Made by a program: the position numbers and the translations under genes. The notes beneath the pieces were generated by a model. It was given only the letters and a program-made list of their open reading frames with translations, ran no database searches and had not been told where the DNA came from. A stretch of DNA of 64,000 nt, from assembly GCA_002050235.1 (NCBI GenBank), contig MWST01000001.1, positions 4,243-68,242 of the forward strand, written 5' to 3'. The stretch comes from Polyangiaceae bacterium UTPRO1. Lineage in GTDB: Bacteria > Desulfobacterota > Binatia > UTPRO1. Positions 2,494 to 46,444 of this stretch are shown here, piece by piece (within the stretch, counting starts at the first letter, position 1; the number at the start of each line of letters is the position of its first letter).

Positions 2494-3917
<1,424 letters not shown>

Positions 3918-3985
3918 CGTAGCGTATATCGGCGTCGTCGGGCGGAAGGCAATGCGCCGTCGCGACCGCTGCGCGCTGCTGCCCG

Positions 3986-21003: not shown

Positions 21004-21090
21004 TTTTCCTTGACCGCGACGCAACGGAACGGTAAGCGGCTGCGGCAAGCCTGGGTCGGCATCGCTACGGAGCTTGAGGGGGGTGTGCGC

Positions 21091-23418
21091 GTGCGACGAG
21101 ACATTGGTTGGTCTCGCAGGTGGTTTTCGGTTGCGGCAGCGGCGCTTCTCGCGGGCGCGACGGCGTGCGGCGGCGGTGGTGGCGGCGGCAACGAGAGCAC
21201 CCGACCGACCGCACCGGGGGCGAGCGCGAATGCGCTCAACGTGACGATCGTCGATGCGGCGATCGCCGGCGACGATCGGCCGACCGTCCGCTTCTTCCTG
21301 ACCGACGGACAGGGGGCGCCGCTCTCGCCCGACGGCGTCCGTATTCGCTTCGTGATCGCGGTGCTGCAGGGCGACGGCGGCGAATACCGCGACTACATCA
21401 CCACCGTGCAGACGAGTCCAGACACCAAGATCTCGGCGACGCAGGCAGCCGCCGAGGATGCGGCGCAGGGTACCCTCGAAGATCAGGGCGGAGGCCTCTT
21501 CCGTTACACCTTCGAGAAATCGTTGCCGCAAGGCTACGTTCGGGATGCTTCACACCGGGTCGCCATCTTCGCCGACACCACCATCCTCGACGTCGCCTAC
21601 GTGTCGAACGACGTGCTCGACTTCGTACCGGCGGGCGGGGCGCCGAGGGCGACGCGCGACATCGTTCGCACCGAGACGTGCAACGGTTGCCACGACCCGC
21701 TCGGCGCGCACGGCGGAGCGCGTCGCGACGTCCGGCTCTGCGTCGCCTGCCATTCCACGGAGATCACCGACTTCGCTACCGGAGAGACGACCCCGCACAT
21801 CGATCCCGACACCCGGAACGGCATCGGTTTTCCGGAGCTCATCCATAAGATCCATCGGGGCGAGAACCTGCCGAGCGTGGAGAGCGGACACCCATACCAG
21901 ATCATCGGCTATCGCCAGAGCGTCATCGATTTCTCCCACGTCGCGTTTCCGCAGGACATCCGGAACTGCGAGACCTGCCACAGCGGCGGCGCCCAGAGCG
22001 ACTTCTTCGCGACGCGCCCGTCGCGAACGGCCTGCGGCTCGTGTCACGACGACGTGAACTTCGCGAGCGGCGCCAACCACGGCGGCGGCCCGCAGCCGAC
22101 CGACGGTAGCTGCTCGTCGTGCCACCTGCCGGACTCCGGCCACGAGTTCGATCTTTCGGTCGTCGGGAGCCACACGGTGCCGCAGAACTCGCGGCAGGCC
22201 GCAGGTGTGCGGTTCGCACTCCTCGAGGTTACGAGCGCCGAGAGCGGCGAACCCGTGGTCGCGCCCGGCCAGCACCCGCGCGTGCGCTTCACGATCACCA
22301 GCGCCGCCGGCGACCCGATCCCGCCGGCCGCCATGAACTCGCTGAGCCTCGTGCTCGGCGGCCCGACGGCGGAGTATTCGGCGCAGGACTACGACGGCAA
22401 CGGGACCATCGTACCCGGCGACCCGTCGAGCCCGTGGACCCCCGGCGCCGAGACCTTCAAGTCGGAGAGCGCGATCAAAGACGCGCAGGGTCCCGACCAG
22501 TCGGGCGCCTGGACCTACACCTTCAAGGCCGCAGTGCCGCCGAATGCGACGGGCAGCTACGTGATCGGCATCGAGGGCTACCGGTGCGCCGCGATCGCGG
22601 GGGCGAACCAGCGGCGCGGCGGCTCGAACTGCGACGGCACGGCCGATCCGAACGGCAACGGCCGCGAGGATCCCGGCGAGGTGTTCAACCAGGTTCGCGA
22701 CGCGGGCCACAACGAAGTGCTACCGTTCCCGGTCTCCGCCGCCGCAGTCGCGTCGCGCCGCGAGCCCGTAGCGATCGACAGGTGCTCCGTCTGCCACGGT
22801 GTCTTCTCGAAGGATTTCCTGGTCCACGGCGGCATCCGCAACGAGACGCGCTACTGTCCGGTCTGCCACAATCCGTCGAACGACACGCTGAGCCGCGAGC
22901 TGCCGCCGGCCGGCGAGACGGCGATGACGAGCCCGATCGACTTCAAGGTGATGATCCACAAGATCCACCGGGGTGAGGAACTAGCCGATCCGTACGTCCT
23001 CTACGGCTTCCCGACCGGAAAGTTTCCGAACCAGACCTCGACGGCGACGAACTTCCAGGAGCTTCTCTACCCCGGCGATCTCCGCGACTGCGAGGCGTGC
23101 CATCTGCCGGGCACCTACGTGCTCTCCCCCGGCGCGGGGATCCTCGGGCCCGGGGTGCTGCCGTCGACGGTGCGCTCATTCCTCCAGGGAGAGCGTGACA
23201 AGACGGTCCTCGATGTCTTCACGACGCCGCCGACGATCGCGGTCTGCACGAGCTGCCACGACGACGTCGACTTCACGACCGGCGCCAACCATGCGGCGGG
23301 ACCGCAGAGCGAGGGGAGCTGCGTCGACTGCCATGGCGTCGGACGGTCTCTGAGCGTCGAGCGCACGCACTTCCCCGGCGTTGCGCGCGAGGCGCGCATC
23401 CTGCGGCCGAACAACTGA
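21091..23418 (+). CDS. Decaheme c-type cytochrome lipoprotein, MtrC/OmcA-like architecture
   Basis: Ten CXXCH motifs in a 5+5 arrangement: CNGCH, CVACH, CETCH, CGSCH, CSSCH, then CSVCH, CPVCH, CEACH, CTSCH, CVDCH. The first lies at 21679-21693 and the last at 23320-23334. The two halves are separated by a ~200-aa heme-free region. Duplicated signatures are present (LIHKIHRGENL / MIHKIHRGEEL; C..CHDDV.F..GANH..GPQ...GSC..CH twice). The signal peptide ends ...AAALLAGATAC and is followed by a Gly run, so it is a probable lipoprotein. The start is uncertain (GTG 21085 or 21091, after GAGGGGGG); the track start 21010 is a TTG inside a promoter-like hexamer. Confidence 0.85.
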   Translation: MRRDIGWSRRWFSVAAAALLAGATACGGGGGGGNESTRPTAPGASANALNVTIVDAAIAGDDRPTVRFFLTDGQGAPLSPDGVRIRFVIAVLQGDGGEYRDYITTVQTSPDTKISATQAAAEDAAQGTLEDQGGGLFRYTFEKSLPQGYVRDASHRVAIFADTTILDVAYVSNDVLDFVPAGGAPRATRDIVRTETCNGCHDPLGAHGGARRDVRLCVACHSTEITDFATGETTPHIDPDTRNGIGFPELIHKIHRGENLPSVESGHPYQIIGYRQSVIDFSHVAFPQDIRNCETCHSGGAQSDFFATRPSRTACGSCHDDVNFASGANHGGGPQPTDGSCSSCHLPDSGHEFDLSVVGSHTVPQNSRQAAGVRFALLEVTSAESGEPVVAPGQHPRVRFTITSAAGDPIPPAAMNSLSLVLGGPTAEYSAQDYDGNGTIVPGDPSSPWTPGAETFKSESAIKDAQGPDQSGAWTYTFKAAVPPNATGSYVIGIEGYRCAAIAGANQRRGGSNCDGTADPNGNGREDPGEVFNQVRDAGHNEVLPFPVSAAAVASRREPVAIDRCSVCHGVFSKDFLVHGGIRNETRYCPVCHNPSNDTLSRELPPAGETAMTSPIDFKVMIHKIHRGEELADPYVLYGFPTGKFPNQTSTATNFQELLYPGDLRDCEACHLPGTYVLSPGAGILGPGVLPSTVRSFLQGERDKTVLDVFTTPPTIAVCTSCHDDVDFTTGANHAAGPQSEGSCVDCHGVGRSLSVERTHFPGVAREARILRPNN

Positions 23419-23437
23419 GCGACGAGCGAGGGCGGGC

Positions 23438-23752
23438 GTGGTGCGGCGGTGGTGCGGAGCGGTTCTCGGGGCGGTCGCGATCGTGGCGCTCGTCGGCTGC
23501 GGCAAGGGCAACGACGACGGCGAGGACTTCGGGAACCTGATCGCCGGAGCGCAGGGGACGCAGCTGACGCGCGCCGAGCATCCGACTGGATGGGGACGGA
23601 GCGAGTGCTTCCTTTGTCATCCGCTCGAGGAGATTCATCGGGTCGATCGCAGCGGCACCGGTACGTTGCCGCTCGCCGACATTCGCCGCTTGGTCGATCG
23701 CGATCGCCTGGGGAGCTGTCCCCTGTGCCACGGCAGCAACGGCGTGAATTGA
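23438..23752 (+). CDS. Small diheme c-type cytochrome lipoprotein
   Basis: Signal peptide with a good lipobox (AIVALVGC) and two CXXCH motifs (CFLCH, CPLCH) in about 85 mature residues. GTG start follows GAGGGCGGG, 19 nt after the decaheme stop. Confidence 0.7.
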   Translation: MVRRWCGAVLGAVAIVALVGCGKGNDDGEDFGNLIAGAQGTQLTRAEHPTGWGRSECFLCHPLEEIHRVDRSGTGTLPLADIRRLVDRDRLGSCPLCHGSNGVN

Positions 23753-23756
23753 CGGC

Positions 23757-25064
23757 ATGAGCAGCGGACGCGTCCTCGCAGCAGTGGTGGCCGTGGCGGC
23801 GGCGTTGCCGGCGCCGCCGGCGATCGCGGGAGCACCAGCCCGTTGGGCGCCGGCCGCGAGCGGCTTCTACGGCAACGTGTACACCGCCTTCCAGGCGAAC
23901 ACGCCGCTGCGCCGCCCGTTCGACGACGACAAGAAGGTGTTTCCCTTCTACCAATATCTCGACGTCCACGGGTACGATCCCGCGCACGGACTGTCGTCGT
24001 CGGCGTTCGTGCGCGCGCGCGAGGTCGCCAACGGCGACGATGTCACCCTCGATGTCTACAATGCGAACCTCGAATATCGGGGTCTCGGCGACGCCGGCGA
24101 CGCGCTGCAGGTGCGGGCCGGACGCCAGGTGCTCGCCGAGGGAACGAATTTCCTGCTGATGGACGGAGCCTACGTCCGCGCCAAGCCGCTACGGGGGCTC
24201 GATGTGGTCGCGTACGGCGGCTACCAGGATGCCGATCTGCAGCCGTACCCGGAGAAGCCGGAGCGGAGCTTCGGCGTCTTCGGCGCCACGCTGCGCTCGA
24301 CGCAGTTCCTGGGCGCCCTCGCAACGGTCGGCTACCACGGCCTGACGCCGCAGGACTCGGCTCCGCGCCACTTCGTGGACCTGGGCTTCAAGCGCGCCGT
24401 GCCGTACACCGACTTCGCCGACGTCTACAGCCGGGTGGAGCTCGATGTCGGCGAGGCGGTGCCGGCGTTCGCCAACGTCGGCGTCGGCCTGAGCCTGGCG
24501 CGGCCGCTCTACCTGAATCTCGAATACGACAGCTACGAACCCGACCCCGATCAGGACCGGTTCCTGCAGGATCGGATCTTCGACGTCTTCGCGCTCGACC
24601 GTCTGCAGGAGGCGCGCATCGGGATCACCTACAAGGCGACGCGCTGGCTCGATGTGTCGTCGAGCTATTCGTTCGCGACCTACGACAAGCAGAACGACCA
24701 TGCGACGCACGGCCACATCGCCAAGCTCGGCTTCAACTGGAACTTCTGGCGGCGACTCGGGCTGCGCGCGTTCAACGGCGTCTACCTGATCGACGGCGGC
24801 GGCGACGATCGCGCGGTCGGCGTCAACTGCGGCGTCTCCGAGGAGATCCTCCGCGGCCTCGAGATCCATGGGATCTTCGCCTTCGCGAACTTCGACAGCA
24901 TCACCGGCAAGCACGGCAACGCCTACAGCTACATCATCGGCACCCAGTACCTGGTGGTGCGGAACGTCTCGCTCCTCGCCGAGATGGAGTACAACACCAA
25001 TCCCGATTTCGAGGTCGACGTCCGCGGCAATTTCGGCCTTACCTACACCTTCAGCTGGAGCTGA
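23757..25064 (+). CDS. Outer-membrane beta-barrel protein (candidate porin component of the cytochrome conduit)
   Basis: 435 aa with signal peptide MSSGRVLAAVVAVAAALPAPPAIAGA. Aromatic-rich amphipathic strands alternate throughout (LDVYNANLEYRG, VVAYGGYQD, IGITYKATRWLDVSSSYSFATY, LGFNWNFW, GNFGLTYTFSWS at the C-terminus). There are no heme motifs. The call rests on composition and pattern, not on a recognised named family. Confidence 0.65.
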   Translation: MSSGRVLAAVVAVAAALPAPPAIAGAPARWAPAASGFYGNVYTAFQANTPLRRPFDDDKKVFPFYQYLDVHGYDPAHGLSSSAFVRAREVANGDDVTLDVYNANLEYRGLGDAGDALQVRAGRQVLAEGTNFLLMDGAYVRAKPLRGLDVVAYGGYQDADLQPYPEKPERSFGVFGATLRSTQFLGALATVGYHGLTPQDSAPRHFVDLGFKRAVPYTDFADVYSRVELDVGEAVPAFANVGVGLSLARPLYLNLEYDSYEPDPDQDRFLQDRIFDVFALDRLQEARIGITYKATRWLDVSSSYSFATYDKQNDHATHGHIAKLGFNWNFWRRLGLRAFNGVYLIDGGGDDRAVGVNCGVSEEILRGLEIHGIFAFANFDSITGKHGNAYSYIIGTQYLVVRNVSLLAEMEYNTNPDFEVDVRGNFGLTYTFSWS

Positions 25065-25068
25065 CCCG

Positions 25069-25701
25069 GTGCGACGATCGACCTTGCGGATCTGTCTGTT
25101 CTCTCTCGTGCTCGCGATCGGCGTGGGCCTCGGCTGCCGGAAGCTCGGGCAGGGCGTCGACTGGGGCTGGCGTGCGGAGCGGCCGGCGGACGCGCTCGCG
25201 GTGTTCTCGCATCAGGGGCACAAGAAGGTCTTCGCGGAGCGGCGGATCCAATGTTTCGCGTGTCACACCATGTCGGCGCGGCTCGAGGACGAGCAGGAGG
25301 CCGCCGCCGCGATCCGAGCGTCCAGGGAGGTGTTCAACGGCGGCAAGGAGGCGTGCCACGCCTGCCACTACAATCCCGAGGTCGGCAACACCGCTCCCGA
25401 CCGCTGCGGGATCTGTCACGCCGATGTCGAGGAGGTCGAGCCGGCGAATCACAACTTCGACTGGATGAGCCGCCACCTGGTCTTCGCCAAGAACGACCCC
25501 GCCAGCTGCGAGAGCTGCCACCAGCAGCGCTACTGCCAGGACTGTCACACCCGTCGCGACCAGACGGTGCGCAGCTACCACGACACCAACATCCGCTTCA
25601 CGCACGGCATCGAGGCGCGCGCGAATCCCATGAAGTGCGGGCAGTGCCACGCTCGCGGCTTCTGCCAGCACTGCCACACGGAAGGCGGCTATGAGAAGTA
25701 G
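25069..25701 (+). CDS. Heptaheme c-type cytochrome (c3/c7-like paired motifs), possibly lipoprotein
   Basis: Seven CXXCH motifs: CFACH, CHACH, CGICH, CESCH, CQDCH, CGQCH, CQHCH, including the tandem pairs CESCHQQRYCQDCH and CGQCHARGFCQHCH. The N-terminal hydrophobic segment ends GVGLGC, an imperfect lipobox. GTG start at 25069, 4 nt after the barrel stop; the track start 24868 overlaps the barrel gene. Confidence 0.8.
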   Translation: MRRSTLRICLFSLVLAIGVGLGCRKLGQGVDWGWRAERPADALAVFSHQGHKKVFAERRIQCFACHTMSARLEDEQEAAAAIRASREVFNGGKEACHACHYNPEVGNTAPDRCGICHADVEEVEPANHNFDWMSRHLVFAKNDPASCESCHQQRYCQDCHTRRDQTVRSYHDTNIRFTHGIEARANPMKCGQCHARGFCQHCHTEGGYEK

Positions 25702-26293
25702 GGGAGCACTCGCCGTCGCCGCGGCGCTGCTCCTATTCGGAGCGGTCGGAGCGCATGCGGCGGAGAAGGACAAGGACGAGGACAATCCGCACGAGAAGAT
25801 GACGCGGAGCCGGAGCGTTTGCATCGATTGCCATACGCGGGTGCCGAAGCCGGGAGAGCACGCCGCCGATTATTCCCTCGTCGATGCGCCGTCGGAGAAC
25901 TGCCTTGGTTGCCACAGCGAATCCGAGCACGCCGGCGCCCGGGCGCACCTCGGCCGCGAGTTCGCGAAGGAGGCGCCGGAGGTGGCCGCCGGGTTGCCGC
26001 TCGACGAGCACGGCAAGATCGCCTGCTTCACCTGCCACGATCCGCATCCGGCGGGCGTGATCGAGGGCCGCACGGTGCATGCGTCGGCGGTGAATACGGA
26101 GACGCGGACGTTTCTCGCGGCGCGGGCGCTGCCCGCGGGCGCCGAGCGCCTCGAGCCTTCCGCCGAGTTCGGGGCGCTGCTGCGCTTGCCACCCGGTGTC
26201 GGATGTGCAGGTTGTCACCCGGCAACGAAAGAATCACCTTGGAGGGAGAAGACGCTATGGAGCGAACGCATTCGGGTCTTGCCGTATTGGTAG
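25691..26293 (+). CDS. Tetraheme c-type cytochrome, periplasmic
   Basis: Signal peptide MRSRGALAVAAALLLFGAVGAHA and four CXXCH motifs (CIDCH, CLGCH, CFTCH, CAGCH). The start overlaps the preceding gene by 11 nt. Confidence 0.8.
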   Translation: MRSRGALAVAAALLLFGAVGAHAAEKDKDEDNPHEKMTRSRSVCIDCHTRVPKPGEHAADYSLVDAPSENCLGCHSESEHAGARAHLGREFAKEAPEVAAGLPLDEHGKIACFTCHDPHPAGVIEGRTVHASAVNTETRTFLAARALPAGAERLEPSAEFGALLRLPPGVGCAGCHPATKESPWREKTLWSERIRVLPYW

Positions 26294-26730
26294 TCGCGGG
26301 TCTCGTCGGAGCGCTGGCGAGCGCCGCGGCAGCAGCCGACGATCCCGGCGTGAAGGTGTTCATCGAGAAGCGGTGCTACACGTGTCATACGGTGGCGTCG
26401 CATGCGGCCGAGATCGAGAAACAGAAGGCCGCTTTCATCAAAGCGAGCGGCGCCGAAGCGGATGAAGAGGGCGAGGACGAGAAGGATAGCAAGGGTGGCG
26501 ATCTCTCCGACGTCGGTGCGAAGCGCACTGCCGCCTGGGTGGACGAGATCCTGAAGAACCCGAAGCCGAGCTTCAAAGATACTCCGGAGTGCCAGCGCCT
26601 GGCGAAACAGAAGGATCGGAAGAAGTTCAAGGGCACGCCCGAAGAGCTGACGGCGCTCGAGAAGTTCTTGGGCAGCCTGAAGGGAGAGGCGAAGCAGGCT
26701 GCGGGCTTCACCTCCTGCCTGAAGGACTAG
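26257..26730 (+). CDS. Monoheme c-type cytochrome with Lys/Glu-rich region
   Basis: ATG at 26257 is preceded by GGAGGGA. Signal peptide MERTHSGLAVLVVAGLVGALASAAAA and a single CYTCH. The charged segment EADEEGEDEKDSKGGD is followed by AAWVDEILKNPK, which resembles class I cytochrome c. It overlaps the tetraheme gene by 37 nt in another frame. Confidence 0.7.
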   Translation: MERTHSGLAVLVVAGLVGALASAAAAADDPGVKVFIEKRCYTCHTVASHAAEIEKQKAAFIKASGAEADEEGEDEKDSKGGDLSDVGAKRTAAWVDEILKNPKPSFKDTPECQRLAKQKDRKKFKGTPEELTALEKFLGSLKGEAKQAAGFTSCLKD

Positions 26731-26737
26731 TCGGCAG

Positions 26738-27415
26738 ATGACGTGGGACTGGTTGCCGCTCCTCCTCGTCGGCGCCGACGCCGGCGGGGAGGCCGCGGAA
26801 CCCGGACTCGCAACGCTGCGCATCGGCGCGGGAGCTCTCTGCGTTCTGGCGATGGCGCTGGTCGCGTACGGCACGCTCTGGCGCCGCGACGGCGTTAGCC
26901 CCGGGGCCCGCGTCGCCATGATGATCGGCTTCCTCGTGCTCTCGCCGCTCGCCTACGTGGTGAACGCGGGCCTGGCGATTACGGACGCCAAGCCCGTCGC
27001 ATTCTGCAACTCGTGCCACGTCATGGAGGCGTACGTCGCCGATCTGCATGATCCCGACAGCGAGCACCTGGCGGCGCAGCACTACCAGTTCCGCTGGATC
27101 GCCGAGAACCAGTGCTACACCTGCCACTCCGACTACGGGCTCTTCGGCGACTTCCAGGCGAAGATCGCCGGACTCAGGCACGTCTGGCACAACACCATCG
27201 GCGACTACGAAGTGCCGTTGAAGATCCGCGGCACCTACAACAACCAGCGCTGCCTCTTCTGCCACGGCCCCGTGCGCTCGTACCGCGAGGTGCCGGAGCA
27301 CGAGAAGAACGCGGCGCGGATCGCGACCAGCGAGATGTCGTGCATCGGCGGCAGCTGCCACGTGTCGCCGCATCCGAAGGCCGCGGCGAAGGCGGAGTCG
27401 GCGCATGCTTCCTGA
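26738..27415 (+). CDS. NapC/NirT/NrfH-family-like membrane-anchored multiheme quinol dehydrogenase
   Basis: Two N-terminal hydrophobic helices. Heme motifs are CNSCHVM (a CXXCHXM signature as in NrfH heme 1), CYTCHSDYGLFGDFQAKIAGLRHVWHN (NapC/NirT-like), CLFCH, and a non-canonical CIGGSCH (CX4CH) at 27341-27361. Confidence 0.75.
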   Translation: MTWDWLPLLLVGADAGGEAAEPGLATLRIGAGALCVLAMALVAYGTLWRRDGVSPGARVAMMIGFLVLSPLAYVVNAGLAITDAKPVAFCNSCHVMEAYVADLHDPDSEHLAAQHYQFRWIAENQCYTCHSDYGLFGDFQAKIAGLRHVWHNTIGDYEVPLKIRGTYNNQRCLFCHGPVRSYREVPEHEKNAARIATSEMSCIGGSCHVSPHPKAAAKAESAHAS

Positions 27416-27638
27416 CGAAGGAGCGCGTGCGGCGGCCCGGAGCCGGCAACGCGTGTGGCTCGTCGCCGCCGGACTCCTGCAGATCGTAGCGATGCTGCTG
27501 GTCCTCGGCGCCCTCGTCCGTCTGACGCCGCTCACCATGACGTTCTCCGTCGGTGGCGCCGGGATACTGCTCGTCCTCGCCTGCGGTATCTACCTAGTGA
27601 ACGTCATGATGGACCTCCGCCACCGCAGCATTTTCTGA
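27405..27638 (+). CDS. Small two-helix membrane protein, last ORF of the cytochrome operon
   Basis: 77 aa with two clear hydrophobic helices (VWLVAAGLLQIVAMLLVLGALV; VGGAGILLVLACGIYLVNVMM). G/C dominates the third codon positions, as in the neighbouring genes. It overlaps the preceding gene by 11 nt. No recognisable family. Confidence 0.45.
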   Translation: MLPDEGARAAARSRQRVWLVAAGLLQIVAMLLVLGALVRLTPLTMTFSVGGAGILLVLACGIYLVNVMMDLRHRSIF

Positions 27639-29129
27639 CGGCCCTACTTGAGGCTGACGTTGCGGCTGTAGGTGGCCGCTACGAGGCGCTGCGAATGCGG
27701 TCGCCTGCCCAGGCCCGAGCTCCGGAGCGGCTGTCTGCATCCGGCGCGTGCGCAAAATCGCCTCGCTGGCGGCGAAGCGCGAGTCCACGAGTGGGCTCGG
27801 TGCCACCCCGAAGGCCACCAGCACCAGAATGAGGGCGCCGAACGTCCAAGTCTCGCGCGGCTGCAGCTCGAGCGACAGCGCTGACGGTACCGGCGGATCC
27901 GGTCGTCCGCAGAACAAGGCGAAGTACATGCGCAGGACGGCGAGGCCGGTCAGCGCCGCCGCGATCACTACGGCAAAACCCATGAAGGGGAAGAGATCGA
28001 TGGCGCCGTCGACGAGGAGCTCCTGCCCCGTGAAGCCCATCGTTCCCGGAAATCCGGTGCATGCAAGGCCGGTGAGCAGGAACGCGATCGCGAGCAGCGG
28101 CATGCGCCGGTAGCCGCCGTGGTATGTCGCCAGGTCCAGACGGCCGCGACGCGATTCGAGCACGAGCACCGAGCGTGCCAGGCCGGCGAACGCCAGCCCT
28201 GCCGACAGCCATACGAGTAGACCGCCGGCGAGCGCGCTCGCGCTCGTGCAGTCGAGACCGGCCATCACCAGTGCCGACTGGCTCACGAACAGGTATCCGC
28301 AGGCTCGGCGTGCGCTTGTTTGAGCCAATGCGAGGGCCGCGCCGTAAACGGCGGTGCCGAGCGCCAACGTGGCGATCGTCCGCAACAACGCCGGGGAGGC
28401 GTGCGGCACGATGAGCACGACGGTGATGTATGCTCCCAGTTGCGGAGCAGTGAACAGGATCGCAGGACCGAGCCGCCCGCGATCGAATACTTCCGGCACC
28501 CAGGCGTGAAACGGCAGAATGCCCTTGCGCGCCAATGCTCCTCCTGCCATGAGCCAGAGCCCGAGCGTTTCGGCGCCGGTGCCGCGCGCGCTCGGAGCCG
28601 TCACGAGCATCACGCCGACCGCGAACAATACTGTGGAAGCGCCGAGATAGGCTGCCGCGACCCGGCGCACGCGCCGGTGTGCCGGGGCAGCGAGTGCCGC
28701 GAGCAGCGTCCACACCGAGGCCGTCGCCAGTACTACCAGCGCAACCGCGCTTTCGGTCAGGAACGACGCGAATGTGATCAACGTGGCGAGCGCCGTACGC
28801 CGGAGGCCGCTTCGGTCGAGTGCCGCGCGCGGCGTCACGCCGACGGTGAGAAGCCATAATCCTGCGGCGAACGGCAGCAACGCCGCCGAGAACGAGTCGA
28901 TGCGCAGGATCGATTCGTTGCCGGCGCGCCAGGCTAGCGCCGTGGTCGGAATCGAAAAAGTGCGCAATCGCGGCGAGAACGCAGCCCCTAGCGCGATCGC
29001 CGTCATTATCGATGCGGCTCCGACCGCCAGCGAGCGCAGCCGCTCGACGTCGAGGCGCACGTACGACACGACAATGACGGTCGCGGGGCATGCGGCGAGC
29101 GCGGCCAGCCAGAGCGGGGCGCTAGTCAT
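27594..29129 (-). CDS. Second proton-conducting antiporter-like membrane subunit (NuoM/NuoN/MnhD-like, PF00361-type) of the DAB-like operon
   Basis: 511 aa, polytopic, with a divergent version of the K..P.H.W.P motif (ARKGILPFHAWVPEVFDRG) and a TM-embedded Glu (FLTESAV). An 8-nt overlap with the upstream gene suggests translational coupling. The C-terminal ~45 aa are low complexity. Confidence 0.7.
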   Translation of the reverse strand: MTSAPLWLAALAACPATVIVVSYVRLDVERLRSLAVGAASIMTAIALGAAFSPRLRTFSIPTTALAWRAGNESILRIDSFSAALLPFAAGLWLLTVGVTPRAALDRSGLRRTALATLITFASFLTESAVALVVLATASVWTLLAALAAPAHRRVRRVAAAYLGASTVLFAVGVMLVTAPSARGTGAETLGLWLMAGGALARKGILPFHAWVPEVFDRGRLGPAILFTAPQLGAYITVVLIVPHASPALLRTIATLALGTAVYGAALALAQTSARRACGYLFVSQSALVMAGLDCTSASALAGGLLVWLSAGLAFAGLARSVLVLESRRGRLDLATYHGGYRRMPLLAIAFLLTGLACTGFPGTMGFTGQELLVDGAIDLFPFMGFAVVIAAALTGLAVLRMYFALFCGRPDPPVPSALSLELQPRETWTFGALILVLVAFGVAPSPLVDSRFAASEAILRTRRMQTAAPELGPGQATAFAAPRSGHLQPQRQPQVGPSENAAVAEVHHDVH

Positions 29130-30483
29130 CGTGCCCGTCGCTCCCGTCGTCCGGCGGCGCCGGCGAGGCGCCTGCCGCCGCGGCGCACAGCCTCTGGTCG
29201 AGAATCGTCAAGCGTCGCGTGAGCGTCGTGAATGGAGCGACGACGAGGCGGTCGAGCCAGCTATCGAGGAATCCGCGCTCGAGCGCGAACAGGTACAGCC
29301 CCAGCTGGGCGCGACGCGGGGCCAGCGCTTCGATGTAGCCGCGCGCCGGTGTCGGGCGTCCGCCCAGCGCATCCTCCATCCCGTGCAGGTCGTGCAAGAC
29401 GTTCGGTGCGCTCAGAAATTGCAGTAGCCGGAAGCACGCGTGTCCCGAGAGGTGCAGGAAGGCGATCGTGCTCCAGCCGAGCGCGATTTCGACGACGATG
29501 ATCCCGACCTGCGTCAGCGCCGCGTATGCCAACGACGACTTGACGTCGCTCTGCACGCGCGTAGCCATCGCGGCGAAGACGGCCGTGCTTGCGCCGGCAG
29601 CGCCGGCCAGCAGGCGCGCGGCCATCGCCTGCTCGAACAGCGGCCCCGCTCGCAGCAGCAGGAAGCAGCCGGCATGAATGGACAACGATCCGTAGTATAC
29701 GGCACTCGATGGAGTTGGTCCCTCCATCGCTCGGGGTAGCCAGCCCGAAAACGGCAGCAGGGCGCTCTTGCCGGCTACGGCGACGATGATGAGGACGGCG
29801 ATCGAGGTCACCTTGACCGGTGTGAGACCTGCCAGCGACAGCGCCGGCGCGCCGCTGAACAACAACTCCAGACTATCGCTGCCGGCGACGTGCCGGAGCA
29901 GTACCGCCGCTGACAGTAGCGCCGCATCGCTCACGCGGTATATGGCGAGTACGCGCAGCGCATTCGATACCGGCGCCGGTCGCTCGTGAAAGAACCCGAC
30001 GAGCAGCGCCGAGCTGAGCCCGACGAGCTCCCAGCCGACGAACAGCACTTCGACATTGCCGGCGAGGGCGACAAGCAGCATGCCGGTCGAGAGCATCGCG
30101 AGCAGGACGAAGTAGCGGTTGTAGCCGGGTTCGCAGTGCAGGTAGCGGTTCGAGAAGGCCGCGACGATGCCGAGGATGGCGGCCGACAGTGCCGCAAAGG
30201 CGAGCGACATCCGGTCGACCAGGAACTCGAGGCCAATGGCGTGGCTGTACGAGCCGGACCAGGCACCGTATGACAAGAGGCGCAGCTCTGCCGGCGTCGA
30301 TTCGTGGATGGCGAACGCGATGCAGAGGGCCGTGCACGCCAGGAGCATCGCGGTACCCGTCAGGAACGCAGTCCAGCGTTCAGTGAGCGGTCGCCCCGCG
30401 ACCGAGGCCGCGCCGAGCAGCGCGAACAGGCCGACTGGGGCGGCGACTGCCGTCAGCACGAGTGCCGCGAGCGCGCCGCTCAT
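29122..30483 (-). CDS. dabB: DabB-like proton-conducting membrane subunit (NuoL/MnhA-like, PF00361-type)
   Basis: 453 aa, polytopic, with NuoL-type signatures VLFVGWELVGLSSALLVGF and AGKSALLPFSGWLPRAMEGPTPSSA. A 4-nt overlap with the upstream DUF2309 gene. Confidence 0.75.
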   Translation of the reverse strand: MSGALAALVLTAVAAPVGLFALLGAASVAGRPLTERWTAFLTGTAMLLACTALCIAFAIHESTPAELRLLSYGAWSGSYSHAIGLEFLVDRMSLAFAALSAAILGIVAAFSNRYLHCEPGYNRYFVLLAMLSTGMLLVALAGNVEVLFVGWELVGLSSALLVGFFHERPAPVSNALRVLAIYRVSDAALLSAAVLLRHVAGSDSLELLFSGAPALSLAGLTPVKVTSIAVLIIVAVAGKSALLPFSGWLPRAMEGPTPSSAVYYGSLSIHAGCFLLLRAGPLFEQAMAARLLAGAAGASTAVFAAMATRVQSDVKSSLAYAALTQVGIIVVEIALGWSTIAFLHLSGHACFRLLQFLSAPNVLHDLHGMEDALGGRPTPARGYIEALAPRRAQLGLYLFALERGFLDSWLDRLVVAPFTTLTRRLTILDQRLCAAAAGASPAPPDDGSDGHDD

Positions 30484-33479
30484 ATTGCCCGCTTCGCGCC
30501 GGAGATCGCCGCCGGTGGTACGAACCCGTGTTTGCCTTCGTACCAGACGGCCGAAACCCCTTCGATCCGGGGAAGCGCATGCTGCGCGTTATGCTGCACG
30601 AAGCCGTGCGTGCGCAGTTCCCAGAGAGACCCCGACTCCGGATCGAGCGCCGCGATCCAGAGCCAGCGGTGGCGTACGAGACGTTCGATCGCGGGAGTCT
30701 GCGATATCGCATCCCGCACGCGGTGACAGGGCGCCTCGATGACGATCGCGAGCCGGACCGGCTCGTGGATCTCGACCATCTGCCAGGGCAGACCGGTGCG
30801 CAGATCGCTCTGGGCACCGTCCATGACGCCCAACAGCGCCGTGACATTGTGCGGCAGCTTCGTGCCGGCGCCGTAACCTGACGGATCGACGTAGCTGAAA
30901 TAGTATTCGAGGTTGATGCCGGCTACGACCGGTCCCGTCGCGGCGATGATGCGCGTCAGAATCGCGCCGTCTGCGTCGAGCTCCGGATCGTACGAGACGA
31001 GAAACGCACGGCGGTCGAGAAACAGGCCGCGAGTCCGCGTCCGGCGCCCGATCACGCAGAAGGCGTTGGTAGCGTGACCGTACTCCGGCCGCGGCTGCGC
31101 GAGATCCGCAGCGCGACCTTCGACGTGGGCGAGCGCCGCGAGCGGCGGATACCAGCGAGGTACATCGAAGCGGCGGCAGCGCTCGTGCGCTTCGTTCCGG
31201 CGTGCGGCATCCACGGCCGACTTGGCGCGCGCGAAGTCCGCCTGCCGGGAGAGCGGCACCAGATCCTCGTCGAAGAAAGTGACCTCGTTGTTGCACGTGT
31301 TCCGCTGCGCTCCGACGAACCAGGTGTCGTCGTCGACTATCACTCCTTGGCTGGCCAGCCGGGTGCGTACGCGCAGATCGTTGGCCATCTGCGCGAACGC
31401 CCGAGCGTTGGGGCCGCCCCTACCGCCGCCGCAGGCGCCGCAGTCGTGCGCCGACTCGTGCGGATTGTTCAGGCTGATCGACCCGTGTCCGACCACTAGG
31501 ACGAGCGGTGATAGCCGTCCGTTGAGACCGACATCTTCGAGCAGCCGGCGCACGATCGCAGCTTGCTCGGCGACGGTGAATCCCGTGTAGGCGCCCGCCG
31601 GCGGCTGCCGCTCGTCGCGATCCAGTTGAAGGCGCGTGGACGGCACGATCGTCGTGTCGCGGGCCCGAACCCATCGCGAGGTCAGCCATGGGAAGACGAC
31701 ACGGAGGATGAGCGGTACGAGGGCCAGCCAGCCGAGCGTCGCCATCAATAACGCTCCGCGAACCGGCAGCCGGCTGCCGATGTGGACGTTGTAGCCGAGA
31801 AAGCCCGTCGCGCGGCGATGAAGGTGGCGCGTACGGCGCACGAGGCGGTCGGCGCCGGGCTCGATCTCCGCGACGTAGTGCTCGGGTCGGATCGCTGCCG
31901 GGCAGAGCGGTCGCGGGTGGGCGTCGACCACGCCTTGGTGGTACATCGCCACGCCGAAGAAGCCTGCGGTGCTGAAGGTTTCGCACGCCGAGTCAGCCTC
32001 TTCGAGATGGCGGCGAAACGATTCTTCGCGCTCGTCGAGACAGAACACGGCCTGGAAGGCCGGTGTTGTAGCCGCCGGCCGCGGGGCGTGCTGTATCAGC
32101 GCGTCGTAGAGCCGATGCCGGATCGTGCGCTCGAAAGCCTGATGCAGAAGCCGCCGGCGCCGGATGTGGTCCATTTCCGAGAGCTCAGTCTCGAGTGCGG
32201 CGATGTCGCCGACCGTCCACCGATCGACGAGCGCCGCCTCGATGCCGCAGAGCTGCGCGAGATGGAAGAGCGGCCAAGCGCGCTCCTCGACCGTCGGCGG
32301 CGAAGCCGGAGAAAACTCCCGGCAGAGCCGTATCCGTAGATCCGCCGGTGTGCTCCCGGTGCCCGTCTGGCGGACGGCGTACTCGAGCGCCGCGCGTCCG
32401 AGTAACAGCCGTACCGCGAGGTAATCGCCGAGCGTGGCGTCGACGCTGCGCGCCGGCACGCGATCGGGACGCTCCTCGATTTGCCGTACGATGCCGGCCC
32501 AGCCGCGTAGCGCCAAGATCTCCGCTGCCAGGTACGCAGCGGTTTCTCCCTCGCTCACGCCGAGGACATGGAGCGAGTGCGCGAGCGATTCGAGCGGGCG
32601 CCGCTGCGCTGCTCGGTCTTCGGCCGCAATCGACGGCAGCGTCCGTGCCCACGCTCCGCATTGGGAAGCGAGCGGCGCGCCGTAGATCTCGAGAAAACAG
32701 CGGTGAAGCCCGAGTGCTCGATCCGGCATCGCCCAGTGGGCGATGCCCTGATCGAGATAGCCAGCCAGAAACCGTATCAGCGGCGGGTGGATCCACGCGT
32801 CGATGTCGATGCCGCGAACGATCTGCAGCCAGTCGTGATGGCGTACGGGCTGCGGGGCGGCGGGGGGCGGCGACGGGAGTGCGCGGCCCGCTGCGGCGAT
32901 GCAAGCCCGCCAGAGCCGGCGCACGTTTCGGCACTCGCCGCGCTCGCCCTCGGGATCGCTACTGTCGCGAAGATCGGCGAAGGCGGAGCGTGCCGACGCT
33001 GGCACGTCCGCACGAAAGCGCGTCAGCGCATCGGTCTCTGCGAGCACCCAGGCGAGCTCGCGTCCGCTTGCGCTCGGAACACCGTGCAGGGCGATGGCTC
33101 GCCACAGATCGCCGCGTGGAACGCCGGCGACCTGCTCCGCTGCGCGGACGCCGAGCTGTTCGTCGATGAGCTCCGCGACATCGCGGGCGCGAATGCGGCC
33201 CGAGGCGAGCTTGTCACGATAACGAGCTTCGGAGAGGTAGGGCTCGCGACCGAGCTCGGCAGCGGCAGTCTCGACCGCCGTCTCGAACGGCAGGTCCTCG
33301 TAGGCATGCAGGGTATTGTGGTGGATGAAGATGCTGATCGGCCCCTGGGCAGGCAGTAAATGCGCGAGGCTGTCGACGACGCGGGCGAGCGAGTGCGGCG
33401 GTTCGACTGCGGCTGCGACCGCATCTCCGCAGGGCAAGAGACCATGCATGGCAGGGATCTGTCGAGCGATGAATTGCAT
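30480..33479 (-). CDS. dabA: DabA (DUF2309/PF10070, UPF0753) putative energy-coupled carbonic-anhydrase-like subunit
   Basis: 999 aa with the N-terminal family signature LLPAQGPISIFIHHNTLHAYEDLPFE. Beta-carbonic-anhydrase-like zinc-site motifs are conserved: FCLDEREESFRRHLE (CxDxR, 32028-32042) and GHGSISLNNPHESAHDCGACGG (HDCGAC, 31431-31448). Confidence 0.85.
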   Translation of the reverse strand: MQFIARQIPAMHGLLPCGDAVAAAVEPPHSLARVVDSLAHLLPAQGPISIFIHHNTLHAYEDLPFETAVETAAAELGREPYLSEARYRDKLASGRIRARDVAELIDEQLGVRAAEQVAGVPRGDLWRAIALHGVPSASGRELAWVLAETDALTRFRADVPASARSAFADLRDSSDPEGERGECRNVRRLWRACIAAAGRALPSPPPAAPQPVRHHDWLQIVRGIDIDAWIHPPLIRFLAGYLDQGIAHWAMPDRALGLHRCFLEIYGAPLASQCGAWARTLPSIAAEDRAAQRRPLESLAHSLHVLGVSEGETAAYLAAEILALRGWAGIVRQIEERPDRVPARSVDATLGDYLAVRLLLGRAALEYAVRQTGTGSTPADLRIRLCREFSPASPPTVEERAWPLFHLAQLCGIEAALVDRWTVGDIAALETELSEMDHIRRRRLLHQAFERTIRHRLYDALIQHAPRPAATTPAFQAVFCLDEREESFRRHLEEADSACETFSTAGFFGVAMYHQGVVDAHPRPLCPAAIRPEHYVAEIEPGADRLVRRTRHLHRRATGFLGYNVHIGSRLPVRGALLMATLGWLALVPLILRVVFPWLTSRWVRARDTTIVPSTRLQLDRDERQPPAGAYTGFTVAEQAAIVRRLLEDVGLNGRLSPLVLVVGHGSISLNNPHESAHDCGACGGGRGGPNARAFAQMANDLRVRTRLASQGVIVDDDTWFVGAQRNTCNNEVTFFDEDLVPLSRQADFARAKSAVDAARRNEAHERCRRFDVPRWYPPLAALAHVEGRAADLAQPRPEYGHATNAFCVIGRRTRTRGLFLDRRAFLVSYDPELDADGAILTRIIAATGPVVAGINLEYYFSYVDPSGYGAGTKLPHNVTALLGVMDGAQSDLRTGLPWQMVEIHEPVRLAIVIEAPCHRVRDAISQTPAIERLVRHRWLWIAALDPESGSLWELRTHGFVQHNAQHALPRIEGVSAVWYEGKHGFVPPAAISGAKRAI

Positions 33480-33508
33480 ATATAGCGATATAACGATACA
33501 GTAGTCCA
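33480..33508. promoter_or_regulatory. AT-rich 29-bp divergent spacer between dabA and the ArsR gene, with TATAT-N4-ATATA inverted repeat (candidate operator/-10 elements)
   Basis: The sequence a-tatatagcgatataacgatacagtagtccag is the most AT-rich stretch I saw in the window. It contains the arms TATAT/ATATA and a CGATA direct repeat. The function is inferred from its position between divergent starts only. Confidence 0.35.
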
Positions 33509-33877
33509 GTGGCGCGCGTGCGAAGACGTTCCGATTCGCCCGTCGGCGAGCTGCAGGAGTTCAAAGCGCGCTTCTTTCGCGCTCTGGCGCACCCCGTCCG
33601 CATCCGCGTTCTCGAAATCCTCGTCCACGGCGGCCGCACCGTCGGTCAACTGCAGGACGCGCTGGTGCTGGAACAACCGGTCGTCTCTCAGCAGCTCGCG
33701 ATCCTGCGCAACCAAGCCATCGTGATCGCACGCAAACAGGGACTCTCGGTCTGCTACGAGCTGCGCGATCCGTTGATCGGCGATCTCCTCGACGTTGCCC
33801 GGCGGATTTTCAGCAACCACCTCGTCGGCACGCACGGGCTGCTGCGCGAGCTGCGGCGGGAGCGGCCGCGTCGTTAG
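33509..33877 (+). CDS. ArsR/SmtB-family transcriptional regulator
   Basis: 122 aa with a winged-HTH signature (FRALAHPVRIRVLEILVHGGRTVGQLQDALVLEQPVVSQQLAILRNQAIVIARKQGLSVCYEL). Start is GTG 33509 or GTG 33518. Confidence 0.85.
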   Translation: MARVRRRSDSPVGELQEFKARFFRALAHPVRIRVLEILVHGGRTVGQLQDALVLEQPVVSQQLAILRNQAIVIARKQGLSVCYELRDPLIGDLLDVARRIFSNHLVGTHGLLRELRRERPRR

Positions 33878-33892
33878 GCGCTCGCCGGGCCT

Positions 33893-34741
33893 TCAGGCGG
33901 TATCGTCGCCGTCGCGGACCAGGCCGCGAGTGCGGGGCGGCAGGTCGTGACGGCGGTCGGGATGGTCGCGCTCGCGAAACCGACGCAGGCCTTCCGCGGT
34001 CTCGGGGGTGCGGATCGAACGGTTGAAGCAGGCGGCTTCGACGCGCAAGCCTTCGGCGAGCGGCAGGCCGAAGCCGCGGACGGCGGCTTCCTTGTCGCTG
34101 CGGATGGCAGGCTGCGGCAGGCTGCAGATGGAGTCGGCGAGCTCGAGGGCTCGCTCCAGCGATTTCCCTTTCGGCACGATCTCGTTGACGAGGCCGATGC
34201 GCTCGGCCTCGACGGCGCCGATGACGCGGCCGGTTATGATGAGATCCATGGCCCGCCCCATGCCGACGATGCGCGGGAGGCGCTGGGTGCCGCCGTCGGC
34301 GAGGCCGATGTTCCAGCGCCGGCAGGTGACGCCGAAGGATGCGTGTTCCTCGGCGATGCGGATGTCGGCGAAGCATGCCCACTCGAGACCGCCGGCGTAG
34401 GCGACGCCGTTGATGGCGGCGATGACGGGTTTGTAGATGTCGGTCCAGCGGCTCGGCCCGAGGATGCCGGGACGCTCGCCGCGGTCGTGTGCGGCGATCT
34501 CGCTCGCAGTGCGCGGCACCAGGTCGTCTCCGGCTTTGAGATCGCCGCCGGCGCAGAAGGCTTTGTCGCCGGCGCCGGTGAGAACTGCGACCAGCGCCTC
34601 GTCGTCGTCGCGGAACCAGGTCCAGGCCTGGATCAGTTCGCGGTGCGTGACCGGGCCGATGCAGTTGCGGACCTCGGGACGGTTGAAGCTGATTATGGTG
34701 ACGGGGCCGCGGCGCTCGTAGGTGATCTCGGTGAAGGTCAT
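33893..34741 (-). CDS. Enoyl-CoA hydratase/isomerase (crotonase) family protein
   Basis: 282 aa with classic crotonase motifs (VTIISFNRPEVRN, VLTGAGDKAFCAGGDLK, VIAAINGVAYAGGLEWA). Confidence 0.9.
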   Translation of the reverse strand: MTFTEITYERRGPVTIISFNRPEVRNCIGPVTHRELIQAWTWFRDDDEALVAVLTGAGDKAFCAGGDLKAGDDLVPRTASEIAAHDRGERPGILGPSRWTDIYKPVIAAINGVAYAGGLEWACFADIRIAEEHASFGVTCRRWNIGLADGGTQRLPRIVGMGRAMDLIITGRVIGAVEAERIGLVNEIVPKGKSLERALELADSICSLPQPAIRSDKEAAVRGFGLPLAEGLRVEAACFNRSIRTPETAEGLRRFRERDHPDRRHDLPPRTRGLVRDGDDTA

Positions 34742-46186: not shown

Positions 46187-46444
46187 TCAGACGTCCAGCA
46201 GCGTCCGGGTGTCGTGCCAGAGTACGAGTCCGACGCTCGCAGCCCATTCGGCTGCGAAGCTCAGGCGGGGAGTGCGCATGATCGGCACGATTGCGAGCGG
46301 CCCGAGCACGGCGGCTGCTAGGACGAGGATCCGGAGCGGCCGGTAGTACCGGGCGATCGCCGCGCTCTGACCCTCGCCGCAGGCGCGGCGGTAGCGATCG
46401 GTCTCGTCGATCGCGTGCTCGCAGCGCCAGCAATGCGTCGTCAT
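46187..46444 (-). CDS. Small hypothetical protein with N-terminal Cys pair and one membrane helix
   Basis: 85 aa from the ATG at 46444: MTTHCWRCEHAIDETDRYRRACGEG... followed by the hydrophobic segment LRILVLAAAVLGPLAIVPI. The track ORF (166 aa) is extended by an Arg-rich N-terminus. Weak evidence. Confidence 0.35.
   Translation of the reverse strand: MTTHCWRCEHAIDETDRYRRACGEGQSAAIARYYRPLRILVLAAAVLGPLAIVPIMRTPRLSFAAEWAASVGLVLWHDTRTLLDV

Follow-up and report, generated by a model that had tools for sequence, protein, structure and literature searches.

The operon described here lies on the minus strand of a 64-kb stretch of DNA (64,000 nucleotides, below called the window) from contig MWST01000001.1 of Polyangiaceae bacterium UTPRO1. 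It consists of dabA, dabB and a third gene for a membrane protein, and it resembles the operons of the DAB inorganic-carbon (Ci) pumps. An earlier inspection of the letters alone (the sequence-only reading) had described three consecutive open reading frames (ORFs) of 999, 453 and 511 aa which overlap by 4 and 8 nucleotides. The list of ORFs gives exactly this, with the overlaps at 30480-30483 and 29122-29129, and the three genes are translationally coupled. The genes, the residues discussed below and an adjoining regulatory gene are presented in Table 1.

Table 1. Positions in the window of the three genes, of predicted functional residues and of the adjoining regulatory gene.
Feature	Position	Strand	Description or basis
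dabA, 999 aa	30480..33479	(-)	class II, predicted cytosolic beta-carbonic-anhydrase-like subunit, PF10070
dabB, 453 aa	29122..30483	(-)	NuoL-like, putative proton-pathway subunit, PF00662 + PF00361
third subunit ("long DabC"), 511 aa	27594..29129	(-)	NuoM/MrpD-like membrane protein, PF00361
CLDER: predicted zinc ligand C480, second shell D482 and R484	32028..32042 (residues 480-484)	(-)	translation
predicted zinc ligand H665 (GHGS)	31485-31487	(-)	pattern match, spacing
NNPHESAHDCGACGG loop with predicted zinc ligand C680 (31440-31442)	31426-31469	(-)	pattern match
zinc-site region, H665 and NNPHESAHDCGACGG loop	31426..31487	(-)	
RPEYGH, H802 (31074-31076) in place of the active-site Leu	31074..31091	(-)	
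hydrophobic DabA segment, residues 573-601	31677..31763	(-)	Kyte-Doolittle; aligns with 9rd0_A region
DabA H674 and H678, His-rich interface	31446-31460	(-)	
DabB hydrophilic-axis residues E152, K239, Y264, H344/H348/R352, H364/H367	29383..30030	(-)	NuoL alignment
DabB H364 and H367, His-rich interface	29383-29394	(-)	
third-subunit residues at NuoM key positions (R201, Q230, Q284, Q369-E370)	28020..28529	(-)	NuoM alignment
divergent ArsR/SmtB-family helix-turn-helix gene	33509..33877	(+)	Pfam HTH_5 and HTH_20

The GC content at third codon positions (GC3) is 0.79-0.84 over the entire length of the three genes (0.79 in dabA), at a GC average of about 0.69 for the window, which argues that all three ORFs are coding, the divergent 511-aa ORF included. 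The sequence-only reading had raised the possibility that the 511-aa gene is a degraded pseudogene which is not conserved in relatives. This was checked and is not so: a pseudogene is ruled out by the uniform GC3 and by the homologs, which fall into more than 1,300 clusters and reach about 70-75% identity. A search of 1.84 billion cluster representatives gave 265 clusters at the 50% identity level with E<=1e-30; they are mostly 445-500 aa long and match nearly the whole query. A scan of 27300-34000 for promoters and terminators gave nothing useful.

The occurrence of such operons was surveyed in one genome per GTDB species, which was scanned with the back-translated DabA loop NNP[Y/H]ESAxDCGACGG. 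The scan gave at least 120 blocks of 8 kb, and the class counts describe this sample and are not a census. Among the loci listed two classes separate cleanly. Class I is the DAB1 type and is found in chemolithoautotrophs (Nitrospira, Acidithiobacillus, Thiobacillus, Guyparkeria, Nitrosomonas and Thermocrinis); its usual gene order is dabB (~560 aa), dabC and dabA, with a dabC product of ~250 aa, or ~438 aa in Nitrospirales. Class II, to which the window belongs, has the order dabA, dabB (~450 aa) and a third gene of ~390-510 aa. It is found in Acidobacteriota (Vicinamibacterales, Bryobacterales, Blastocatellia and Acidobacteriaceae), in Planctomycetota including Kuenenia, and in Verrucomicrobiota, Eisenbacteria, Armatimonadota, Myxococcota, Gemmatimonadota and Bacteroidota. 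The hosts of class II are mostly heterotrophic soil and freshwater phyla, whereas the DAB1 hosts are carboxysome-bearing chemolithoautotrophs.

The sequence-only reading had proposed that the three-gene arrangement is a fixed one. Many of the 8-kb blocks cut through the operon, and the third gene was counted in blocks which reach at least 500 nucleotides past dabB; it was present in 32/32 such class II loci. The closest named relatives of the window proteins are found in metagenome-assembled genomes (MAGs) of Vicinamibacterales. In this comparison the host, a high-GC heterotroph, resembles this order of Acidobacteriota most. The locus with a 72%-identical homolog (L001) mirrors the window: a divergent ArsR gene, a DabA of 959 aa, and proteins of 455 and 488 aa with an 8-nucleotide overlap. 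A different situation was seen in Nitrosomonas eutropha Nm 57 (L034, 2247-7999), which has two DAB1-type DabA genes in tandem in one 8-kb block, both with NNPYESALDCGACGG.

The 999-aa protein matches the full PF10070 profile (residues 35-940 versus profile positions 1-747, E=6.9e-231), and it matches the solved DabA2 structure 9rd0_A with E=2e-64; among DAB structures the PDB searches matched DAB2 (9rd0) only. Two motifs had been taken as evidence for an intact zinc site, CLDER and HDCGAC, and both are where the sequence-only reading put them (nt 32028-32042, and residues 678-683 at nt 31431-31448). The site as such stands, with a complete Cys/His/Cys set, but the ligand His is H665 of a GHGS motif and not H678 of HDCGAC. 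The zinc ligands of Thermocrinis albus DabA are C449, H694 and C709 (10.64898/2026.05.01.722082), and H665 was chosen because solved DABs place the His 15 residues before the second Cys; the spacing from H665 to C680 is 15 residues, the same as from H694 to C709. The CLDER residues correspond to C449, D451 and R453 of T. albus. DabA is therefore predicted to carry a complete zinc site of the beta-carbonic-anhydrase type, made up of C480, H665 and C680 with D482 and R484.

These features belong to the class as a whole. The motif C[ILM]D[ED]R occurs in 55/57 class II DabA sequences (the remaining two are partial) among the loci listed, and the loop NNPHESA[H/Y]DCGACGG in all 57; the class I counterpart of the loop is NNPYESALDCGACGG. 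A third motif, RPExGH with Y, W, L or F at x, is found in 56/57. In DAB1-type sequences which reach this motif it reads RPEWGL (56/58, the two exceptions looking like misbinned class II fragments), and so it does in DabA2 of 9rd0_A. The Leu of RPEWGL, L825 in T. albus, sits at the position where ordinary beta-carbonic anhydrases have the hydrogen-bond donor for bicarbonate, and it has been proposed to disfavour bicarbonate binding or to favour product release (10.64898/2026.05.01.722082). Only two segments of the window DabA pass the Kyte-Doolittle threshold; residues 839-857 barely do so, and the stronger one, residues 573-601, probably represents the membrane-inserting "elbow/finger" helices. 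The DAB-specific loops by which DabA contacts DabB are present in the window protein.

The residues of the membrane subunits were compared with E. coli NuoL, NuoM and NuoN as references, the key positions being verified on the fetched sequences. For DabB the alignment comprised E. coli NuoL, 33 class II sequences (the window and 32 others) and 25 class I sequences. The sequence-only reading had called the 453-aa protein NuoL-like. It has PF00662 and PF00361 (profile positions 1-229 of 294), NuoL models rank first in NCBIfam, and there is a weak match to the NdhF3 model TIGR01960. Residues 23-378 match the DabB2 structure 9rd0_B with E=3e-30, and Foldseek superposes the AlphaFold2 (AF2) model, which has a pLDDT of 73, on NuoL of E. 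coli with a query TM-score of 0.70 and an rmsd of 3.4 Å over 361 columns. The description must however be restricted, since the match to the NuoL models covers no more than positions 5-359 of 615 and the protein ends after transmembrane helix (TM) 11: past residue 347 there is no hydrophobic segment, and the last ~90 residues are low-confidence non-membrane helices in the AF2 model. The shortness is not accidental, because all of the 120 closest homologs are 438-469 aa long. The 32 diverse class II relatives have 426-531 aa and DAB1-type DabB 544-624 aa; DabB1 and DabB2 have been described as proteins of 559 and 551 aa (10.1101/476713).

The sequence-only reading had named the TM5 Glu and the TM7 and TM12 Lys as the residues to look at, besides an HMM assignment of both membrane proteins. 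At the TM5 position (NuoL E144) all 33 class II DabB sequences have Glu (E152 in the window), whereas 23/25 of class I have His, Gln or Asn. TM7 (NuoL K229) has Lys in 33/33 (K239), and Lys or Arg in class I. TM8 (NuoL H254) is Tyr in 33/33 (Y264) and His in all 25 class I sequences. On TM11 (NuoL H334, H338 and K342) class II has H344, H348 and an invariant Arg, R352 (33/33), and class I His, His and Lys. The columns of NuoL K399/D400 on TM12 are gaps in every class II DabB, the helix being absent, and are not conserved in class I. The DabB encoded next to dabA has thus kept TM5 E152, TM7 K239 and TM11 H344/H348, and it has exchanged the TM8 His for Tyr264 and the TM11 Lys for Arg352. Mutation of the TM8 His abolishes the activity of both DAB1 and DAB2 (H229 in T. 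albus, H260 in Halothiobacillus neapolitanus; 10.64898/2026.05.01.722082).

A further difference lies at the interface between DabA and DabB. In DAB1 the cytosolic helix after TM11 of DabB touches the DabA loop via H328 and R331 (10.64898/2026.05.01.722082). The class II equivalents are H364 and H367, and the His in place of the class I Arg is found in 31/32 sequences. On the DabA side class II has His at the Tyr and Leu positions of the NNPYESALD loop (H674 and H678). These His substitutions are class-wide and co-vary between the classes.

The 511-aa protein is a divergent NuoM-like PF00361 protein different from DabB, as had been proposed. Positions 75-294 of the PF00361 profile are matched at residues 181-394, and NuoM models rank first in NCBIfam, with only the C-terminal half being matched (positions 217-482). 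The AF2 model has a pTM of 0.70 and an N-terminal half with pLDDT 80-96, and in Foldseek it aligns over its full length with MrpD, NuoM, ND4 and NuoN (TM-score 0.57-0.63, ~500 columns). In a second homolog search, where 19 diverse third subunits served as profile, the same ~70%-identical Vicinamibacterales-like clade was returned, which means that the alignments behind the AF2 models were low in diversity. Judged by these models the third subunit has the full size of an antiporter-like protein, and its N-terminal half has changed so far that the sequence no longer shows the relationship.

A profile of the short DabC was made from nine proteins of ~250 aa, the products of the gene which separates dabB from dabA in class I operons. 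Compared with the class II third subunit in hhalign it gave 96.9-97% probability and E=2e-10 to 8e-11 over 229 columns, at residues ~204-443. The ~438-aa DabC of Nitrospirales bridges the two forms, with 98.3% to the class II third subunit and 98.9% to the short DabC. By profile comparison, then, DabC and the 511-aa protein are homologous, the latter being the longer of the two. The PF00361 domain is matched in 19/19 diverse class II third subunits and in two of the nine short DabC proteins, there only weakly; the other seven are without a Pfam match, which agrees with the published statement that DabC has no Pfam family. In the cryo-electron microscopy structure of T. albus DAB1, a DabA/DabB/DabC heterotrimer, DabC superposes on the NuoM helices adjoining NuoL (10.64898/2026.05.01.722082). 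The region of the third subunit that aligns with DabC agrees with this, being the C-terminal half of NuoM on the side which faces NuoL in complex I. The link from DabC to PF00361 appears to be new; we have not found it stated in the literature.

The long DabC of Nitrospirales (412-439 aa) is encoded at 3325-4638 of locus L044, 3488-4807 of L053, 4151-5389 of L064, 3962-5281 of L066, 4221-5540 of L078, 4597-5910 of L111 and 1427-2743 of L115. It is of intermediate length, with an N-terminal membrane region added and hydrophobic residues at the NuoM key positions, in the gene order dabB-dabC-dabA. In a MAG of Candidatus Kuenenia stuttgartiensis (L038, 1078-3045) the third gene is split into an N-terminal part of ~390 aa and a C-terminal, DabC-sized part of 249 aa; this could be a frameshift, an assembly error or a natural intermediate toward the short DabC.

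Short DabC and third subunit differ at the positions which line the proton pathway of NuoM; these columns were scored in 22-23 class II sequences against E. coli NuoM. At TM5 (NuoM E144) class II has hydrophobic residues or Thr, and the predicted TM5 of the window protein (residues 128-145) is without any ionisable residue; the short DabC does not have this helix, and the long Nitrospirales form has Ala, Gly or Ile there. TM7 (NuoM K234) is Arg in 22/22 third subunits (R201) and Leu or Phe in DabC. TM8 (NuoM K265) is Gln or His in 21/22 (Q230), and mixed in DabC, either Gln/His or hydrophobic. The position of NuoM H322 (TM10/11) is Gln in 21/23 (Q284) and mostly hydrophobic or small in DabC. 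On TM12 (NuoM E407) class II has Gln, Glu or Asp (Q369) followed by Glu or Asp in 23/23 (E370), so that the acidic residue is shifted by one position; DabC is hydrophobic here. DAB1 DabC has likewise been described as hydrophobic at the NuoM proton-pathway positions (10.64898/2026.05.01.722082). Of the ion-module axis of the NuoM/MrpD type the third subunit has lost the TM5 Glu, the TM7 Lys and the TM8 Lys, and only the acidic residue of TM12 is kept.

In complex I the pair of TM5 Glu and TM7 Lys senses the TM12 residue of the neighbouring subunit. The third subunit has retained a TM7 Arg and a TM12 acid, and DabB the TM5 Glu and TM7 Lys; from this co-retention we infer a continued role, and the residue patterns suggest that the third subunit serves electrostatically or in the proton path. 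It may therefore be more than a scaffold. A complete second channel is unlikely, because a protein with neither the TM5 Glu nor the lysines does not look like a canonical, self-sufficient proton module.

The sequence-only reading started from the premise that a DAB consists of DabA plus one NuoL-like subunit, and this premise is not supported. DAB1 of H. neapolitanus was described as early as 2018 as a cluster of three genes, one of which codes for a small protein and separates dabA1 from dabB1 (10.1101/476713), and the DAB1 structure published in 2026 is the trimer mentioned above. Its authors regard DabC as structural or allosteric, and DabC is reported to be required in vivo (10.64898/2026.05.01.722082). 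The arrangement of the window has also been described: Klimchuk et al. noted in 2017 that ybcC (DabA) upstream of a nuoL homolog often has a COG1008 (NuoM) gene in its neighbourhood, and they proposed that more membrane subunits would mean more translocated ions (PMC5700660). Given the DAB1 trimer and this study, both the arrangement and the multi-ion hypothesis were in the literature. The "three-gene variant" of the sequence-only reading is consequently a real, conserved and experimentally uncharacterised class, but not a new architecture.

The system most like that of the window is DAB1 (T. albus; H. neapolitanus Hneap_0907-0909). Both have three subunits, a Cys/His/Cys zinc site, a nearly identical NNPxESAxDCGACGG loop, a NuoL-like DabB with His-x3-His on TM11, and third subunits homologous to each other. 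They differ in gene order (B-C-A in DAB1, A-B-C in the window) and in DabB, which in the window has ~450 aa and no TM helix after TM11, with Glu retained on TM5, Tyr on TM8 and Arg on TM11. The third subunit of the window, with 511 aa (~390-510 in the class), PF00361 and a predicted MrpD/NuoM-like fold, stands against a DabC of ~250 aa, and its TM7, TM8 and TM12 positions are polar or charged where DabC is mostly hydrophobic. The DAB1 signatures NNPYESALDCGACGG and DW(xxx)RPEWGL are absent from the window DabA, which has NNPHESAHDCGACGG and RPEYGH instead. DAB2, MpsAB and Tcr_0853-0854 (PDB 9RD0) share the PF10070 DabA with its zinc site, a PF00361 DabB which aligns over TM1-11, and presumably the coupling of CO2 hydration to the proton-motive force. 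DAB2, however, is without a third subunit, its DabB2 has 551 aa and 15 TM helices (PMC13144422), and the motif of DabA2 is NNPHRAGLDCGACAG with RPEWGL.

The "Clade C" YbcC (COG3002) operons of Klimchuk et al. show the same arrangement as the window, with ybcC upstream of a nuoL homolog and a COG1008 gene; some members have a SulP gene, and none was seen in the window. Their description is confined to gene neighbourhoods, predates the discovery of DAB function and holds no link to DabC, residue analysis or experiment (PMC5700660). An analogous combination of a NuoL-like, a NuoM-like and a zinc-containing CO2-hydrating protein exists in cyanobacterial NDH-1MS and MS' (NdhF3/NdhD3/CupA and NdhF4/NdhD4/CupB). 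There the CO2-hydrating protein works as a vectorial carbonic anhydrase; the Cup proteins are unrelated to DabA, and the modules belong to the redox-driven NDH-1. With Mrp and complex I the likeness is one of fold (in Foldseek the third subunit hits MrpD/NuoM best, and DabB NuoL/ND5) and of interface logic, in which a TM12 faces the TM5 Glu-TM7 Lys pair of the next subunit. Partners of the type MrpB/C/E/F/G or NuoH/A/J/K are not encoded in the operon, and the window DabB, which lacks TM12-16, does not contain a complete 14-TM core with inverted 5-TM repeats.

We conclude, with a probability of roughly 0.7, that the product of the locus is a heterotrimeric vectorial carbonic anhydrase of the DAB type, or Ci pump, and that it belongs to a distinct, experimentally uncharacterised class. 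By analogy with the solved DAB1 and DAB2, CO2 diffusing into the cell would be hydrated at the buried zinc site of DabA, and coupling to a flow of ions, probably H+, through DabB would make the hydration one-directional. The proton path in DabB would consist of E152, K239, Y264, H344/H348 and R352, and the coupling would pass via the cytosolic helix after TM11 (H364/H367) to the NNPHESAHD-C680 loop. The bicarbonate formed would be trapped in the cytosol and feed carboxylation reactions when CO2 is scarce. The residue patterns suggest that the third subunit sits at the NuoM position, beside TM4-8 of DabB. Its TM7 Arg and TM12 Glu/Asp would there combine with the TM5 Glu and TM7 Lys of DabB to lengthen the charged axis. 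The subunit may have an electrostatic effect on DabB, tuning or gating it, or form part of the proton path.

Several points weigh against this interpretation. The AF2 models are of moderate quality (pLDDT 68 for the third subunit and 73 for DabB), and the C-terminal half of the third subunit, with the key residues, is the less confident part. Its N-terminal half gives a probability of at most 2.3% against NuoM, NuoN or NuoL in hhalign, that is, no sequence similarity. The placement beside DabB is carried over from DAB1. Since class II DabA has His for the conserved Leu the vectoriality could differ, and as Tyr replaces the TM8 His and Arg the TM11 Lys in DabB, proton conduction may differ or be impaired. 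It should also be noted that we found no experiments in the literature, on Ci uptake or on rescue of E. coli lacking carbonic anhydrase, with this dabA-dabB-third-gene type of operon.

The third subunit could instead be a pure structural or assembly scaffold, as proposed for DabC of DAB1, its larger size being an ancestral, untrimmed state. This is a possibility to be taken seriously, although we hold it to be the less probable one. The homology to DabC and the structural or allosteric view of the DAB1 authors agree with it, as do the poorly conserved N-terminal half without buried charges and the loss of all canonical lysines and of the TM5 Glu. What speaks for a relay is that the TM7 Arg and the TM12 Glu/Asp are invariant, and the TM10 Gln conserved, across phyla, in columns which are hydrophobic in DabC. 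Furthermore, DabB has kept its TM5 Glu in class II only, and the counterpart of this Glu in complex I faces the TM12 of the neighbour; that both sides of the interface are retained together suggests selection on a charged relay. If the third subunit nevertheless is only a scaffold the finding reduces to an ordinary variant of the family.

A stronger version of the pump hypothesis holds that class II is mechanistically distinct from DAB1 and DAB2, with a third subunit active in the ion path, and that the class is ancestral. We consider it tentative and rather doubtful. Were it true, the third subunit would supply the half-channel missing in DabB, or act as a second, electrostatically coupled module through the TM7 Arg and TM12 Glu, which would lie opposite the TM5 Glu and TM7 Lys of DabB, and the His-rich interface (DabA H674, H678 and H802; DabB H364 and H367) would point to another coupling chemistry or ion stoichiometry. 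The ancestor would then have been a two-module antiporter joined to a carbonic anhydrase, from which DAB1 arose when the NuoM-like subunit was shortened and DAB2 when it was lost.

The sequence-only reading had suggested two ion channels per catalytic subunit, i.e., two complete and independent ion-translocating modules as in complex I or Mrp, which would move two ions per catalytic cycle. We think this unlikely. Two PF00361 proteins are indeed encoded, the predicted fold of the third subunit is of the full-length MrpD/NuoM type with the basic residue of TM7 and the acidic residue of TM12 kept, and the same speculation has been published for this type of operon (PMC5700660). However, the third subunit has neither a TM5 Glu nor any ionisable residue in the predicted TM5, its TM7 Lys has become Arg, its TM8 Lys Gln or His and its TM10/11 His Gln, and as DabB ends after TM11, without TM12 and what follows, neither of the two modules would be complete.

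It is quite improbable that the complex is no inward Ci pump at all and works as an ion-exporting enzyme which generates a potential, as a non-vectorial tethered carbonic anhydrase or as a cation antiporter. The energy-generating role was the original COGNAT suggestion (PMC5700660); the exchange of Leu for His makes DabA resemble freely reversible beta-carbonic anhydrases such as CsosCA, and the substitutions of the TM8 His and the TM11 Lys in DabB fit as well. Yet the NNPxESAxDCGACGG loop, the helix after TM11 with His364 and His367 and the elbow segment are all conserved, and other Mrp or Nuo subunits are not encoded nearby. Tested DAB homologs either accumulate Ci or rescue E. coli free of carbonic anhydrase, except for 2/7 in one screen. 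That the two membrane genes are halves of one split DabB, with the N-terminus of the 511-aa protein supplying the missing TM12-15, may be dismissed as most improbable: the complementary-looking PF00361 matches (positions 1-229 and 75-294) and a DabB ~100 residues shorter than DabB1 and DabB2 invite the idea, but the 511-aa protein is predicted to fold as a complete 14-TM MrpD/NuoM-like protein, is matched best by NuoM and not NuoL models, is homologous to DabC in its C-terminal half, and with its N-terminal 195 residues reaches a probability of only 0.5% against TM12-15 of DAB1 DabB in hhalign.

If the locus encodes a trimeric pump of the DAB type, its interest lies in the comparison with the solved systems. 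What makes the DABs unidirectional, and what DabC does, are open questions in the two structure papers of 2026 (10.64898/2026.05.01.722082; PMC13144422). Class II offers a natural and widespread variant for both, in which the equivalent of DabC is recognisably of the NuoM type with a charged TM7/TM12 pair, and in which the helices displaced by DabA in DAB1 are missing from DabB. Three residues to which the DAB1 and DAB2 studies draw attention are exchanged throughout the class: the TM8 His, which has been shown to be essential, the conserved proton-path Lys of TM11, and the active-site Leu proposed to disfavour bicarbonate. A comparison of class II with DAB1 and DAB2 thus leads directly to mutational hypotheses on the coupling, and the link between DabC and PF00361 is of evolutionary interest. 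The class is found in abundant soil and freshwater heterotrophs (Vicinamibacterales, Bryobacterales and Planctomycetota), and it may be a common route of bicarbonate supply outside the autotrophs.

The neighbours of the operon in the window are the ArsR-type regulator, an enoyl-CoA hydratase, a glycosidase and a cluster of multihaem cytochromes. No RuBisCO or carboxysome genes were found in the 64 kb, which fits a heterotrophic bicarbonate supply like that of MpsAB; by this analogy the role is probably to provide a heterotroph with bicarbonate and not to take part in a carboxysomal CO2-concentrating mechanism. Further Mrp or Nuo/Ndh subunit genes were not found near the operon in the window or in L001.

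The ArsR/SmtB-family gene is the probable regulator of the operon. At least 12 class II loci, spread over several phyla, have a gene of this family beside dabA; those which carry it are the window, L001 (5215-5592), L062, L116, L096, L008, L112, L091, L071, L097, L105, L011 and L100. It is divergent from dabA in the window and in L001 and co-directional in most of the others. In Bryobacterales and Planctomycetota the co-directional gene mostly has a stop codon overlapping or abutting the dabA start, which makes a four-gene unit. In the COGNAT study other DAB clades were partnered by LysR or PII, not by ArsR (PMC5700660). The ATG of dabA (33479) and the GTG of the divergent gene (33509) are separated by 29 bp, and the gap between the called genes in L001 is ~150 bp. 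In DabA residue 11 is a second Met, and the PF10070 match begins at residue 35; the real start codon of the window dabA, of the ArsR gene or of both probably lies further inside.

The cluster of multihaem c-type cytochromes (21010-27415, plus strand) follows directly downstream of the operon in convergent orientation. Among its products are a NapC/NirT-like protein and a protein of 802 aa which has MtrC/MtrF-like domains, and the cluster suggests extracellular or periplasmic electron transfer in the host. Beyond the cytochromes an ORF of 1796 aa (15425-20815, minus strand) is coding-like with a GC3 of 0.86, and Pfam finds one weak PD40 repeat in it and nothing else. On the other side of the operon a single ORF of 1529 aa (47800-52389, plus strand, GC3 0.93) contains a complete AcrB-type resistance-nodulation-division (RND) pump at residues 5-1035 and an outer-membrane efflux protein (OEP) domain at 1336-1516. 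It is preceded by a gene for an HlyD-like adaptor (46291-47790) and may code for a fused protein of RND pump and outer-membrane factor.

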